This document shows positions 1 through 37,099 of a DNA stretch of 64,000 nt, piece by piece (the stretch's first letter is position 1; the number at the start of each line of letters is the position of its first letter). Location of the stretch: NCBI RefSeq assembly GCF_013122565.1, contig NZ_CP053258.1; one strand, given 5' to 3'. Under the pieces are notes generated by a model, which ran no database searches, had not been told where the DNA came from, and saw only the letters and a program-made list of their open reading frames with translations. This DNA is from Escherichia coli (GTDB lineage: Bacteria; Pseudomonadota; Gammaproteobacteria; Enterobacterales; Enterobacteriaceae). The translations under genes were made by a program, and so were the position numbers.

Positions 1-201
1 GCGGATCAGTACGCCGTCTGCCACTAAGTCGCTGATGGCTTTGCGAATGGTAATGCGGCTGACGTTATATTGTGTACAAAGCTCGTTTTCGGTAGGGATC
101 TGTTGCCCGGCCTGGTAAACCCCCTGCGCGATATCATCCAGCAGCCGCTGGCGGACGGTAGCGTAGAGGAGTTGATGAGAGTAGCGGTCCGTAGCTGACA
201 T
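1..201 (-). CDS. frlR: GntR-family transcriptional regulator FrlR, N-terminal 67 codons (gene runs off the window start)
   Basis: Reverse-complement of 1..201 translates in frame from ATG (199..201) as MSATDRYSHQLLYATVRQRLLDDIAQGVYQAGQQIPTENELCTQYNVSRITIRKAISDLVADGVLIR, a GntR winged-helix N-terminus; sits directly downstream of frlD as in the frl operon. Confidence 0.85.
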   Translation of the reverse strand, partial: MSATDRYSHQLLYATVRQRLLDDIAQGVYQAGQQIPTENELCTQYNVSRITIRKAISDLVADGVLIR

Positions 202-266
202 AATCGACCCTGAAATAAAGAATGAATTACTCGGATTATAGGGTCGTTTTCCGGCAAGTAACAGCA

Positions 267-294
267 CGTTGGCGTGAAGATGCTCACGCCAACG
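267..294. other. Perfect 11-bp stem-loop (cgttggcgtga / tcacgccaacg, 6-nt loop) between frlD stop and frlR start
   Basis: Inverted repeat read directly from sequence; no adjacent U-tract on either strand. Confidence 0.6.
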
Positions 295-300
295 TTATAC

Positions 301-1086
301 CTACCAGGCACCGTGGTACTGAATGGTTTTCGCCGCGCACGCCGTTCCCTGCGCCATCGCCTGCGGTAATGTCATCCCCGCAGACCAGCCGCAAAGGAAT
401 CCGGCAATGAACGAATCTCCGGCACCCATGGTGTCGATAACCGTCACCGGTTCAGGAGCCTGACGCCAGAACTGCGCGCCATCCCAGGCAATGCTGCCGT
501 TTTCACCCAGCGTGACAATCACTGTTCCTGCGCCACGGGCAACAATCGCTTTCATCTTCAGACGCAGCGCTTCGTCTTCTTGCGGTGCGGAGGCAAAGGC
601 AAAATCGAGATGCGGCACCAGTGTCTGCCAGAGCGGGCTGTCCCACTTGTCGGAGAAGTCGAAAGCGGTAAGTTTGCCCGCAGCGTGCAGCTGTGGGAAT
701 GCGTCTTCCGCATGTCCCCAGATTGCGGCGTGCACAATGTCATACTGCGCCAGCCAGGCGTAATCCTCTTCACTCAGGGCAAAGTCGGCCATCACGCCTT
801 CGGTGTAGTCGCCAAAAACGCGATCATTGTCGTGCAGTTCCACCTGAGTTTGTGCGGTAACGCCGTGTTTCGTATGGACATGGCTGATATCGACGCCCAT
901 GCGGGCGAGATCCTGCTTCAGCTTTGTGCCGTAGTCATCGTCACCCACCCAGGTAATGCATCCCGGCTGTATGCCGTAGCGAGTGCAGTACACCGCCACA
1001 TTGACCGCATTACCGCCAGAAAACGCTTTATTCAGTTGCGGGTAGATATCGACGCAGTTATCGCCGATTGTCGCCAGGGTTTTCAT
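301..1086 (-). CDS. frlD: Fructoselysine 6-kinase (PfkB-family sugar kinase)
   Basis: 261-aa ORF-track protein with PfkB ribokinase-like features; position in frl operon. Confidence 0.93.
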
Positions 1087-1913
1087 CTCTCATCCTCCGG
1101 CAGCAGCGCGCGAAAGCGTTCCAGCGCCTGGCGGGCATAGAGTCTGGGCTCGTTCATATACATCGTCACCAGCTCCACCGTACAGTAACCCTCATAGCCC
1201 CGCTCAATAATATCGCGCATCAGTTCCCGCAGCGGCATTTTGCCTTCTCCAGGAATGTAATGCGTGTCGCTGGCCCCGTCGCTGTCGACAATATGCAGAT
1301 GACGTAATTTATCGCCCAGTTTGTCGAAATAACTCATCACCGGTTCCGCCTGAACATACGGCGCGCAAATGTCGACCATGCTGAACAGGCGCGGCGAAGG
1401 CACCAGCGCCAGCGCATGAAGCACATCATTAGCATTACACACGACGTTCGATTCATACGGCGTTAACGGTTCGAGGATTAGATCCATGCCGATGTTTTCC
1501 GCGTACTCACACAGTTCGCTTAGGTTCTCTGCCAGCCGTCCCCAGATAACATTAGGTGGCGTGAGATAGCCCGCATGGGCCGCGGAAATCAGCGTATAAC
1601 CCGCGTTCATCTCTTTTGCCATATCCATCGCCAGCTTGATCATGTCGAGGCTTTCGCGACGCATATGTTCATCGCCCAGCATCATGTTATACGGATAGCC
1701 GTTGGTTTCTGGCGTATAGCCGATAATCGGCATCTGATACGTCTGCGCCAGCGCCTTGATTTGTTTGATGCCGCCCGCTTTTAAGTCCGGCGCGAACGCG
1801 TGCGGGCGACCGCCCCAAATTTCGATGCCGTCGTAACCCAGCTCGCTTGCATCACGAAATGCGTGTTCAATAGGCAGCCGCTGGTGGCCGCAGGTAAACA
1901 TACCTGTTTTCAT
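1083..1913 (-). CDS. frlC: Fructoselysine 3-epimerase (TIM-barrel sugar-phosphate isomerase/epimerase family)
   Basis: ORF-track frame 1083..2000; start placed at internal ATG (MKTGMF, 276 aa) which has a GGAG Shine-Dalgarno and avoids a 38-nt overlap with frlB. Confidence 0.88.
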
Positions 1914-1962: not shown

Positions 1963-2985
1963 TTAATATTCCACCAGACCACCGTAATAGCGGCGTTCAT
2001 CCGGGTTGTGATCTTTGTAAATAGACAGGTAGTAGCAGAGCCACTCCATTGGCACGAACATCAGGAACGGTGCCAGCCACGGGTGCAGCCCTTGCGAAAT
2101 TTCGGCGTAATCGATGACGATCACGTTGTCAGTACGCTGTTTAACAAAGTTAATGGCGCGTTCGGTGGTGTGGCGACTTTCATCATTGCCGAGCAGGAAC
2201 AGGAACGGAACGCCCGGTTCGACAATCTCCAGCGGGCCATGGCGGAACTCTCCGCTCTCAATCACGCAGCCGTGCGTCCAGGTAAATTCCATCAGCGTTA
2301 CAATGCCTTCTTTGTAACCCAGCGGACGCAGCGGACCCGCAGCAACGGTATAAATCATCGGCCACTGGCTGGCCAGTTCACCAAGCTGGCGGCCTTTTTC
2401 TTCCCAGGTGCGTACCAGATGACCGAGCGCATTCGGCAACTGCTTGAGATCGTTTTTGATCTTGCCGATTTCCGCGTTCGGCGCGAGGCGGGTGATCATC
2501 TCCAGCACCACGCTGTAGCAGAGCAGCAGGTGAATTTCCCAGATACAGTCGGCCTGATAATCAATGCTAAATTCCGCCGCCGAGGTAATCGGGCTGTCCG
2601 CGCGTTTGGTGAACGCCGCAGTGAGTGCGCCGCAGGCCCGGCCCAGCTCCAGCGCTTTGATTACCTCTTCCGTTTTACCGTAGTCAGAAACGCCAATCAC
2701 CGCGCAACGATCGTCGAGGCGATACGGGGTGTTATCGCAGAACTCCCAGCCGGAAATGGCGTAGACCTGAAGATCGGAAAAGCGATCCGCCAGATGTTTC
2801 GCCGTTTGCGCCGCGTTGAGTGGCGAGCCGCAGGCAACGAAATAAATACGATCAATGTCGCGCTTCACCATCTCTTCCACGATGGCGTGCACCAGCGGAA
2901 CGTCATGGCTGAGAACTTTTTCCACTTCCTGAACCATATTTTCGGTGACCAGAAAGTCCACGGTGCTTTTATCAATATCCAACAT
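1963..2985 (-). CDS. frlB: Fructoselysine-6-phosphate deglycase (SIS-domain protein)
   Basis: ORF-track frame 1963..3006; start placed at ATG 2985 (MLDIDKST, 340 aa) preceded by GGAG at about 8 nt; first ATG lacks an SD. Confidence 0.88.
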
Positions 2986-3005
2986 TTTATTTTCTCCAGA
3001 TAACA

Positions 3006-4394
<1,389 letters not shown>

Positions 4395-4560
4395 TTAAAA
4401 GGTAACATGACAATGCATGATGAATATAACAACATATGATGTTATGTAATGTGGAGGAAGATCACATAATTTCGCACAGGATCGCGCTGTGGCTGATGAA
4501 TGTGGTTATCCAATTGAAATTAAAGTGAAAATATTTTTACGGGTGGGGAGCAAGAAGGAT

Positions 4561-4598
4561 ATAGAAACAAATACGCCCTCGGAAAATCCAGAGGGCGT
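4561..4598 (-). terminator. Intrinsic terminator downstream of yhfL
   Basis: 8-bp stem acgccctc/gagggcgt with 10-nt loop, followed on the minus strand by auuuguuucu. Confidence 0.6.
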
Positions 4599-4638
4599 CA
4601 GGCAATTAAACCGGTGTTAGCCGATTTCTGTCAGAGAC

Positions 4639-34114: not shown

Positions 34115-34143
34115 TTACTCGTTAATTAGTTTTGAATTAAAAA

Positions 34144-34165
34144 GGGCGCTTCGGCGCCCTTTTTG
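34144..34165 (+). terminator. Intrinsic terminator of the str operon after tufA
   Basis: Stem gggcgc/gcgccc with loop ttcg, followed by ttttt. Confidence 0.85.
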
Positions 34166-34405
34166 CATTTATTGATTGCATATCTTATTTGTAATATCAG
34201 AACGAACAAATCATTCATAATTAAAATATCATATTGAATTGATATTTTAATTATGAATATTTCTGTTTTTAAAATGCTTCATTTATCAGGCTTTTTTCTT
34301 ATTTTTAATGCTGTAATTCAATTCATATTGAAGGGTTCTCGTAAAATGTAAATAATTACTACGTAGGACTTTTGTTTTGTAGTTTTTACGTCACAAGGGA
34401 TTATA

Positions 34406-37099
34406 ATGAAATTAAATATATTTACTAAATCTATGATTGGTATGGGGCTGGTGTGTTCTGCTCTGCCTGCATTTGCTATTGAAGCATGGAATAACCAACA
34501 AGGTGGTAATAAATATCAGGTTATTTTCGATGGCAAAATTTATGAAAATGCCTGGTGGGTTTCTTCTACAAATTGCCCGGGAAAAGCGAAAGCAAATGAT
34601 GCAACTAACCCGTGGCGTTTAAAGCGTACCGCGACAGCTGCTGAAATTAGTCAGTTTGGCAATACACTTTCCTGCGAAAAGAGCGGTAGCTCATCGTCTT
34701 CAACTTCAAATACGCCAGCATCTAATACGCCGGCTAATGGCGGTTCGGCTACACCAGCACAGGGCACTGTTCCGTCTAATTCTTCTGTAGTTGCCTGGAA
34801 TAAACAGCAGGGCGGTCAGACCTGGTATGTCGTCTTTAATGGTGCGGTATATAAAAATGCCTGGTGGGTAGCCTCTTCTAACTGCCCGGGTGATGCGAAA
34901 GGCAATGATGCCAGCAACCCATGGCGTTATGTTCGTGCCGCTACGGCAACGGAAATCTCAGAAACCAGTAATCCACAGTCCTGTACTTCAGCACCACAGC
35001 CTGCACCGGATGTGAAACCGGCACCGGACGTTAAACCGGCTCCTGATGTTCAGCCAGCCCCGGCTGATAAGTCAAACGACAACTATGCTGTCGCAGCCTG
35101 GAAAGGTCAGGAAGGTTCTTCTACATGGTACGTTATCTACAACGGCGGCATTTATAAGAACGCCTGGTGGGTAGGCGCGGCAAATTGCCCAGGCGATGCG
35201 AAAGAAAACGATGCCAGCAACCCATGGCGTTATGTTCGCGCGGCAACGGCAACAGAAATCAGCCAGTATGGTAACCCAGGCTCCTGTTCCGTTAAGCCTG
35301 ATAATAATGGCGGTGCTGTGACTCCGGTTGATCCAACTCCGGAAACTCCGGTTACCCCAACTCCGGATAACAACGAGCCATCAACACCAGCGGATAGCGG
35401 TAACGATTACTCATTGCAAGCGTGGAGCGGCCAGGAAGGTAGCGAAATTTACCATGTTATTTTCAATGGTAATGTTTACAAGAATGCCTGGTGGGTTGGT
35501 TCTAAAGATTGCCCACGGGGTACCAGCGCTGAAAACTCCAATAACCCATGGCGTCTCGTGCGCACAGCTACCGCTGCGGAAATGAGTCAGTATGGTAACC
35601 CGACTACCTGTGAAATTGATAATGGCGGCGTCATTGTTGCGGATGGTTTCCAGGCCAGCAAAGCGTACAGCGCAAACAGCATCGTAGATTATAACGATGC
35701 ACATTATAAAACCTCTGTCGATCAAGACGCATGGGGCTTTGTCCCGGGCGGCGATAACCCGTGGAAGAAATACGAACCGGCGAAAGCATGGTCCGCTTCC
35801 ACCGTGTACTTGAAAGGTGATCGCGTTGTTGTTGATGGGCAGGCTTATGAAGCGCTGTTCTGGACGCAAAGTGACAACCCTGCTCTGGTTGCGAACCAAA
35901 ACGCCACCGGTAGCAATAGCCGCCCGTGGAAGCCGTTAGGTAAGGCTCAGAGCTATAGCAACGAAGAGCTGAATAATGCGCCGCAGTTTAATCCAGAAAC
36001 GCTTTATGCCAGTGATACGCTGATTCGTTTTAACGGTGAGAACTACATTTCTCAGAGTAAAGTGCAGAAAGTTTCCCCTTCTGACAGCAACCCGTGGCGT
36101 GTCTTTGTTGACTGGACCGGAACCAAAGAACGTGTAGGTACGCCGAAGAAAGCGTGGCCGAAACACGTTTATGCACCGTATGTCGACTTTACGCTGAATA
36201 CGATCCCGGATCTGGCTGCGCTGGCTAAGAATCATAACGTCAACCACTTCACGCTGGCGTTTGTGGTGAGTAAAGATGCGAACACCTGTCTGCCGACATG
36301 GGGTACCGCTTACGGTATGCAGAATTACGCTCAGTACAGCAAAATCAAAGCTCTGCGTGAGGCTGGCGGCGATGTGATGCTGTCTATCGGTGGTGCTAAC
36401 AACGCTCCGCTGGCTGCTTCCTGTAAGAACGTAGACGATCTGATGCAGCATTATTATGACATCGTTGATAACCTGAACCTCAAAGTCCTGGACTTCGATA
36501 TCGAAGGCACCTGGGTTGCGGATCAGGCATCTATTGAACGTCGTAACCTTGCTGTGAAGAAAGTGCAGGATAAATGGAAGTCAGAAGGCAAAGATATTGC
36601 TATCTGGTATACCTTGCCAATTCTGCCGACTGGCCTGACGCCGGAAGGGATGAATGTCCTGAGCGATGCCAAAGCGAAAGGTGTTGAGCTGGCGGGTGTG
36701 AACGTGATGACAATGGATTACGGTAACGCGATTTGTCAGTCTGCAAATACCGAAGGTCAGAACATCCACGGTAAGTGTGCTACGTCTGCGATTGCCAGCC
36801 TGCATGCGCAGTTGAAAGGCCTCTACGGCAATAAGAGCGATGCTGAAATTGACGCCATGATGGGTACCACGCCGATGGTTGGCGTGAACGACGTTCAGGG
36901 CGAGGTGTTCTATCTCTCTGATGCTCGTCTGGTCATGCAGGATGCGCAGAAGCGTAATCTCGGTATGGTTGGTATCTGGTCAATCGCGCGCGACCTGCCG
37001 GGCGGCACTAACCTGTCTCCGGAATTCCACGGTCTGACTAAAGAGCAGGCTCCGAAGTACGCATTTAGCGAAATCTTCGCGCCGTTTACTAAGCAATAA
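34406..37099 (+). CDS. chiA: Periplasmic endochitinase/lysozyme-like ChiA (GH18 catalytic domain with four N-terminal chitin-binding repeats)
   Basis: 897-aa ORF-track protein; signal peptide; four repeats of the AW(N/K)xQxGxxxYxVxFNGxxYKNAWWV...NPWR module; GH18 motif LDFDIEG. Confidence 0.95.
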   Translation: MKLNIFTKSMIGMGLVCSALPAFAIEAWNNQQGGNKYQVIFDGKIYENAWWVSSTNCPGKAKANDATNPWRLKRTATAAEISQFGNTLSCEKSGSSSSSTSNTPASNTPANGGSATPAQGTVPSNSSVVAWNKQQGGQTWYVVFNGAVYKNAWWVASSNCPGDAKGNDASNPWRYVRAATATEISETSNPQSCTSAPQPAPDVKPAPDVKPAPDVQPAPADKSNDNYAVAAWKGQEGSSTWYVIYNGGIYKNAWWVGAANCPGDAKENDASNPWRYVRAATATEISQYGNPGSCSVKPDNNGGAVTPVDPTPETPVTPTPDNNEPSTPADSGNDYSLQAWSGQEGSEIYHVIFNGNVYKNAWWVGSKDCPRGTSAENSNNPWRLVRTATAAEMSQYGNPTTCEIDNGGVIVADGFQASKAYSANSIVDYNDAHYKTSVDQDAWGFVPGGDNPWKKYEPAKAWSASTVYLKGDRVVVDGQAYEALFWTQSDNPALVANQNATGSNSRPWKPLGKAQSYSNEELNNAPQFNPETLYASDTLIRFNGENYISQSKVQKVSPSDSNPWRVFVDWTGTKERVGTPKKAWPKHVYAPYVDFTLNTIPDLAALAKNHNVNHFTLAFVVSKDANTCLPTWGTAYGMQNYAQYSKIKALREAGGDVMLSIGGANNAPLAASCKNVDDLMQHYYDIVDNLNLKVLDFDIEGTWVADQASIERRNLAVKKVQDKWKSEGKDIAIWYTLPILPTGLTPEGMNVLSDAKAKGVELAGVNVMTMDYGNAICQSANTEGQNIHGKCATSAIASLHAQLKGLYGNKSDAEIDAMMGTTPMVGVNDVQGEVFYLSDARLVMQDAQKRNLGMVGIWSIARDLPGGTNLSPEFHGLTKEQAPKYAFSEIFAPFTKQ
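35000..35071 (+). repeat. In-frame 18-bp tandem repeat encoding the Pro-rich linker (PAPDVK)x2-PAPDVQ-PAPADK within chiA
   Basis: Four consecutive 18-nt units read from sequence. Confidence 0.8.

Follow-up and report, generated by a model that had tools for sequence, protein, structure and literature searches.

The window, i.e. the whole stretch of 64,000 nucleotides of E. coli DNA that was analysed, begins with the fructoselysine locus, which fills the first 4.4 kb and is encoded in minus-strand sense. According to the list of open reading frames, frlA (3006-4394), frlB (1963-3006), frlC (1083-2000) and frlD (301-1086) follow each other on the minus strand; the annotated end of K-12 frlD at 3503952 corresponds to window position 301. 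The stop codon TAG of frlD occupies positions 303..301 and the start codon ATG of frlR positions 201..199, both on the minus strand, and frlR continues past the window edge. The untranslated gap between the two genes is 99 nt. Base for base, the junction is the same as in K-12 MG1655, where window positions 295..266 correspond to 3503958-3503987, and the RefSeq annotation of K-12 contains no feature between frlD and frlR. The region around the junction (window 1-1200) is present in 3299 of 5426 complete E. coli genomes, once in each and exclusively on the chromosome; the frl locus is therefore accessory. In the O157:H7 genomes SS17 and 7.1_Anguil (L082, L083), an internal stop makes frlD an annotated pseudogene. 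The sole detailed study of frl regulation (bioRxiv 10.1101/2020.01.13.904318) treats the frlA promoter, and the words 'terminator', 'hairpin' and 'intergenic' do not occur in it. Its authors point to the copy number of FrlR as the decisive factor in leaky basal expression and possible bet-hedging.

A perfect inverted repeat between the frlD stop and the frlR start had been noted at 266-295 in a preliminary description of this DNA, and a repeat finder confirmed it. The arms ACGTTGGCGTGA (266-277) and TCACGCCAACGT (284-295; both given for the plus strand) comprise 12 nt each, are 100% complementary and are separated by 6 nt. In the minus-strand RNA, repeat search and folding place the 5' arm at 295..284, the loop at 283..278 and the 3' arm at 277..266. 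From the frlD stop codon, which lies 5 nt upstream of the hairpin in the transcript, this RNA reads UAG-GUAUA-ACGUUGGCGUGA-GCAUCU-UCACGCCAACGU-GCUGUUACUU. The first and the last base of the loop form a G-U pair, which extends the stem to 13 pairs and reduces the loop to 4 nt; seven of the 12-13 pairs are G-C, and the loop thus measures 4-6 nt. A 38-nt segment containing the hairpin folds at -21.4 kcal/mol (z = -7.08 compared to dinucleotide shuffles), and none of the shuffles was as stable. Under a first-order Markov model, 0.02 perfect stems of at least 12 bp with a loop of 3-10 nt are expected per 64 kb; the window holds four. At least two of the other three possess the A-run/T-run flanks that are typical of bidirectional terminators. 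As the stem between frlD and frlR is stable and lies far above chance expectation, the observation is real.

Within the 64-kb window, no further exact copy of the arm sequence was found, and the palindrome is single-copy in each of the 3299 E. coli genomes carrying the locus. A search of positions 238-314 against Rfam 15 at a permissive E-value yielded chance matches only, with mir-2765 at 17.4 bits (gathering value 58; E = 9.4). Two mechanically determined open reading frames, 24..311 on the minus strand and 222..410 on the plus strand, cross the hairpin. A coding explanation was rejected: the indels in the alignment of orthologues are not multiples of three, and a conserved reading frame across the hairpin therefore does not exist.

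A scan for FrlD was performed with one genome per species. It yielded 14 non-E. coli loci of Enterobacterales from Phytobacter, Kosakonia, an Enterobacteriaceae MAG, Atlantibacter, Citrobacter, Pantoea and Franconibacter, and an alignment of 16 sequences. In all 14 loci, frlR is found about 100 nt downstream of frlD, and all 14 contain a hairpin at the same position with folding energies of -16 to -27 kcal/mol. Conservation is unevenly distributed: the hairpin arms show 86% identity to E. coli, compared to 37% for the loop, 22% for the spacer between stop codon and hairpin, and 47% for the third codon positions of frlD. The length of the loop differs between species and amounts to about 6, 8 or 14 nt. 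Over the 11 hairpin pairs, 94.9% of the alignment cells are paired; the value drops to 20-49% if the 3' partners are slid by 1-3 columns. Two-sided changes occur at three pairs, namely U-A to C-G in six sequences, G-C to A-U in five and U-A to A-U in one. The observed covariation score was reached by none of 500 shuffles, with the covariation resting on few evolutionary events among 16 related sequences. Furthermore, five of the six one-sided changes in the stem core yield a G-U or U-G wobble on the sense strand; if the antisense strand or a DNA dyad is considered instead, the same changes would produce A-C mismatches.

Additional, more distant loci were gathered via homologues of FrlR. The homologous hairpin is retained in Cronobacter. 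Hairpins of unrelated sequence lie directly 3' of the frlD stop in Serratia fonticola, in Sodalis and, at the locus encoding P0021, in a metagenomic relative, and in the most distant group, whose FrlR is 63-65% identical, the hairpin picture is less clear. Within E. coli, the few polymorphisms are located in the flank and the loop; the exception is O157:H7 SS17, of the lineage with the frlD pseudogene, where one nucleotide is deleted inside the 3' arm of the hairpin. Taken together, the conserved arms, the free loop, the variable spacing, the compensatory and wobble changes and the unrelated replacement hairpins bear the signature of selection on RNA base pairing. The palindrome is an evolutionarily conserved RNA stem-loop.

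The 3' side of the stem is adjoined by the block CT[G/A]T[T/G]ACT, which is nearly invariant in the 16 sequences. In E. coli, this block contains the -35-like hexamer GTTACT (257..262, minus strand); in Pantoea piersonii, P. brenneri and UBA3516, the hexamer is ATGACT. The -10 hexamer TATAAT (235..240, minus strand) follows after 16 nt. It is invariant in all 16 aligned sequences and lies at a fixed distance from both the hairpin and the frlR ATG; a TATAAT or TATACT box is also found 34-36 nt upstream of the frlR ATG in eight loci that are more distant. The P. piersonii arrangement ATGACT-16 nt-TATAAT scores 10/12 as a sigma-70 promoter. The E. coli hexamer GTTACT matches three of six -35 positions, and a simple promoter scan gives no call. 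The module GTTACT-16 nt-TATAAT is probably frlR's own promoter, and the start site of frlR is expected near 231-228. If the module is read in this way, the order at the junction is therefore stop codon, hairpin, promoter, short leader and frlR. The putative promoter (235-262) is absent from the published study of frl regulation.

A further inverted repeat lies between the hairpin and frlR. The ribosome-binding region of frlR, AGGGUCG (205..211, minus strand; CAGGGT is invariant), pairs in the fold with CGACCCU (240..246, minus strand), a weakly supported candidate anti-Shine-Dalgarno sequence. In this stem, 82% of the cells are paired and one compensatory change, G-C to A-U, occurred in the clade of Phytobacter, Kosakonia and UBA3516. 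The other clade contains instead CCCC just 3' of the -10 box, which is able to pair with GGG. Because CGACCCU lies 5' of the expected frlR start site, it would be present in read-through RNA only, and we speculate that the stem might mask the ribosome-binding site of frlR on this RNA exclusively.

That the hairpin lacks an adjacent U-tract, as had been stated in the preliminary description, holds for a canonical U-tract. The statement is too strict in so far as the tail GCUGUUACUU (256..265, minus strand), which is U-poor and borderline as the tail of a terminator, has U at 5 of its 10 positions and narrowly satisfies a simple scan for terminators; the call is due to TGTTACTT, which places 5 T in an offset 8-nt window. 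For the loci of Pantoea piersonii, Atlantibacter subterranea and Phytobacter massiliensis, i.e. for all three orthologues scanned, the T-tail was insufficient. The tails of the other orthologues contain few U in the 10 nt after the stem and are similar to CCUGUUACU. Given that the stem is conserved despite these U-poor tails, it is a feature that has been preserved independently of a U-tract. The stem-loop as such is that of an intrinsic terminator: it is stable, GC-rich, within the usual size of about 5-14 bp with a loop of 3-8 nt, located on the sense strand and placed after a stop codon. It is equally a stable stem-loop without a U-rich sequence after it. Stem-loops of this class form the steady-state 3' ends of Rho-dependent E. 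coli transcripts (PMC6061677); they protect against PNPase and RNase II, and rut sites are located just downstream (Dar & Sorek 2018, PMC6061677). At the frl junction, a C-rich, G-poor stretch of rut-like composition (154..244, minus strand) covers the frlR leader and the first codons. In segments of 78 nt, the C/G ratio is 2.0 (244-167) and 1.92 (231-154), with the 95th percentile of this strand being 1.86; as a matter of composition, this is no more than a hint, and the start of frlR, which would be shielded if translated, falls within the stretch.

The preliminary description had further proposed that the hairpin could uncouple frlR from frlABCD, either as a partial terminator or as a processing site. 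This proposal is consistent with the evolution of the element as an RNA stem, with its distance of 5 nt from the stop codon and with the conserved promoter-like module, and is plausible from the sequence. Among the readings considered, we regard one as reasonably probable: the hairpin is an RNA 3'-end stem-loop that acts as a weak terminator and/or as an exonuclease barrier and parts the frlABCD mRNA from an independently transcribed frlR. The palindrome would be transcribed within the frlABCD mRNA, fold into a stable stem-loop just past the frlD stop and most likely set the steady-state 3' end of this mRNA. Two routes, which may operate alone or together, could lead to this end. Firstly, the hairpin may be a weak, partial intrinsic terminator; since its U-tract is poor, termination at the hairpin itself may be negligible. 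Secondly, it may block 3'-to-5' exonucleases after transcription has ended further downstream and thus stabilise the frlABCD mRNA. The downstream end could possibly be brought about by Rho in the C-rich frlR leader; the 99-nt untranslated gap leaves little room for Rho to load, unless no translation of frlR takes place on read-through RNA. Some read-through would occur, and frlR would owe most of its transcription to its own promoter, which begins just past the hairpin. The level of the repressor would therefore be largely uncoupled from the induction of frlABCD. We infer 3'-end formation at the hairpin, the shares of termination and exonuclease protection, and the activity of the promoter from the features listed above. 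A search of supplements of Term-seq, Cappable-seq and SMRT-Cappable-seq studies, some of them truncated, gave no entry for the frlD-frlR junction; this absence is uninformative, also because frl is poorly expressed in standard media.

A stronger version of termination is unlikely. According to it, the hairpin is a canonical, efficient Rho-independent terminator that fully ends frlABCD, and frlR is expressed from its own promoter only. The GC-rich stem of 13 pairs with its 4-nt loop directly past the stop, the 5 T in the 8-nt tail window that make the simple scan flag the E. coli hairpin, and the conserved promoter that follows would all suit such a terminator. However, GCUGUUACUU is not a U-tract, none of the three scanned orthologues passes the T-tail requirement, and the remaining tails are U-poor. 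Moreover, RNA-seq of ETEC revealed that frlR is upregulated together with frlB, frlC and frlD (PMC7483508), which suggests read-through and fits leaky, not complete, termination.

A 3'-end stem-loop that parts frlABCD from frlR resembles several known systems. With intrinsic terminators, including weak or partial intercistronic ones, the frlD hairpin shares the GC-rich stem, the loop of 4-6 nt, the sense orientation and the location directly past a stop codon; in contrast to them, it has neither a U-tract of 7-8 nt nor an upstream A-tract. It is similar to the stems described by Dar & Sorek 2018 (PMC6061677) in being a stable stem-loop of terminator size after a coding region, with a U-poor tail and an excess of C over G downstream. 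Unlike these stems, it is located inside an operon-like cluster, 99 nt before the next gene and not at the end of a transcription unit, and its Rho dependence, exonuclease trimming and 3' end are putative. Like stabiliser hairpins and REP elements, the frlD hairpin is a stable structure between cistrons and could prolong the life of the upstream mRNA relative to that of the downstream gene. The malE-malF gap is an example of such intercistronic elements. In contrast to REP elements, the frlD hairpin is single-copy, and it bears no sequence relation to the REP consensus. The hairpin between frlD and frlR belongs to a well-known kind, of which it is an uncharacterised example; as an intercistronic RNA element, it is ordinary.

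A more elaborate reading, which we regard as unlikely, places the hairpin within a conserved insulation module by which the FrlR level would be kept constant across the induction states of frlABCD. Read-through RNA would carry the anti-Shine-Dalgarno sequence CGACCCU, and promoter-initiated mRNA would be devoid of it; frlR would therefore remain untranslated on the read-through RNA. In the C-rich leader, which is thereby exposed, Rho would end transcription, and exonucleases would shorten the RNA as far as the hairpin. Consequently, frlR would be translated only from transcripts that begin at its own promoter.

It is improbable that the hairpin is an endonucleolytic processing site, for example a substrate of RNase III in the form of an extended helix or a structure directing RNase E, which would split an frlABCDR transcript into segments of different stability. 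In favour of this explanation, a conserved RNA structure is compatible with a processing signal, and the E. coli hairpin can stack on an outer helix of 10 pairs (CUGGUAGGUA with UACUUGCCGG), which would result in about 23 pairs in total. However, the outer helix is not conserved: it was not recovered in the consensus fold and is broken in Pantoea piersonii, P. brenneri and UBA3516, and was thus dismissed as part of the element. The conserved stem alone, with its 10-13 bp, is short for RNase III.

The preliminary description had also considered an operator-like palindrome for a DNA-binding protein, and this suggestion gained no support. It is quite improbable that FrlR, CRP or another dimeric regulator binds the palindrome as double-stranded DNA, be it to act on the frlR promoter or as a roadblock, even if the dyad is perfect and centred about 50 bp ahead of the position where frlR transcription is expected to start. 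For CRP, a centre near -50 is not canonical. At the top of the stem, cGTGA-N6-TCACg agrees in 8 of 10 positions with the textbook CRP core TGTGA-N6-TCACA; however, core matches of this quality were observed 33 times per 64 kb compared to an expected number of 28, and Phytobacter (ATGA...TCAT), Atlantibacter (GTGA...GCAC) and Pantoea have not retained the core. A CRP site was rejected, the core being unconserved and as frequent as expected by chance. The published FrlR operator FrlO is GT-N6-AC, GTCATGTTAC, at window position 4402-4411 (bioRxiv 10.1101/2020.01.13.904318). The length of the spacer is argued to define recognition by FrlR, a spacing of 10 bp not being recognised (bioRxiv 10.1101/2020.01.13.904318). 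The palindrome offers GT-N10-AC at its centre and GT-N22-AC only, and an FrlR operator inside it was rejected on spacer length. In more general terms, species differ by 2 to 8 bp in the distance between the arms, and unrelated hairpins occupy the same place in Serratia and Sodalis. Both partners of a pair have changed in several cases, and a protein that reads the sequence would not tolerate such changes.

FrlO-like sequences in the neighbourhood of the stem were also considered as arguments for an operator. Directly 3' of the stem, GTGCTGTTAC (258..267, minus strand) conforms to GT-N6-AC and is identical to FrlO in 8 of 10 positions; the final 2 nt of the stem form part of it, and it also overlaps the -35-like hexamer. 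Matches of this quality were observed 46 times per 64 kb with 46.2 expected, and the GT of GTGCTGTTAC is specific to E. coli and unconserved in other species. The overlap with the -35-like hexamer hints at autoregulation by FrlR and is to be taken as a lead only. The variants TGTTAC and ATGAC of the conserved block are the two half-sites of FrlO. As an extension of the insulation module considered above, FrlR may bind the conserved TGTTAC block abutting the stem and thereby autoregulate the frlR promoter. The hairpin tops of two other species (about 3800-3812; L013, L010) resemble the reverse complement of FrlO as well: the loop GTAACATTAC of Pantoea eucrina matches in 9 of 10 positions and GTGACATTAC of Atlantibacter sp. 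RC6 in 8 of 10, which is maybe a coincidence.

A palindrome in the intergenic gap of a fructosamine cluster also exists in Bacillus, and it would favour an operator by analogy. In Bacillus spizizenii (L092, 12753-12790), the gap between frlB and frlO contains a perfect intra-operon palindrome of 38 bp, CATTAGACTATAATGTTAT|ATAACATTATAGTCTAATG, whose core TAACAT/ATGTTA is also that of the FrlR operator in E. coli. Deppe et al. (2011) reportedly described the frlB-frlO palindrome as the FrlR site of B. subtilis. The Bacillus palindrome is AT-rich, has no loop and possesses a GT-N6-AC centre (GT-TATATA-AC) that fits the FrlR operator rule. In contrast, a GC-rich sequence, a variable loop, a GT-N10-AC centre and compensatory evolution characterise the element of E. 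coli.

At the frlA promoter, a block CATCATATGTTGTTATATTC (window 4400-4470, minus strand) is nearly identical in E. coli, Serratia, Sodalis and Cronobacter (L084, L085, L086). Downstream of this block, the published operator GT-N6-AC persists in E. coli and Sodalis only (GTCATCATAC). The actual site of FrlR could be larger or have another position.

A functionless chance or selfish palindrome, for example the relic of a repeat element, is extremely improbable: RefSeq annotates nothing here and no Rfam family matches, but the arms are conserved far above the neutral rate and compensatory changes occurred across at least six genera, which effectively refutes it, and membership in a repeat family (REP/BIME) was rejected because the hairpin is single-copy per genome and hence not REP-like.

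The published model of E. coli fructoselysine regulation covers the frlA promoter only and leaves open how the level of FrlR is set. A conserved hairpin with a dedicated promoter behind it suggests for frlR a transcription unit of its own, roughly constitutive and insulated from the induced operon. Such a unit would correct the common picture of an 'frlABCDR operon'. As frlR is a recurrent target of adaptive mutations in the mouse gut, the control of its expression has some physiological relevance. The frlD hairpin is also an example of a terminator-like stem without a U-tract.

Terminators of the canonical type occur elsewhere in the window. Downstream of yhfL and before the frlA promoter, a canonical intrinsic terminator is located at 4566-4600 (minus strand), where GCCCTCTGGATTTTCCGAGGGC is followed by GTATTTGTTTCT; it contrasts with the U-poor hairpin after frlD. 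A canonical bidirectional terminator lies at 34139-34164. Just past it, at 34213-34258, a perfect AT-rich inverted repeat of 19 bp with a loop of 8 nt (ATTCATAATTAAAATATCA...TGATATTTTAATTATGAAT) is found in the gap upstream of an open reading frame of 897 amino acids (34406-37099).
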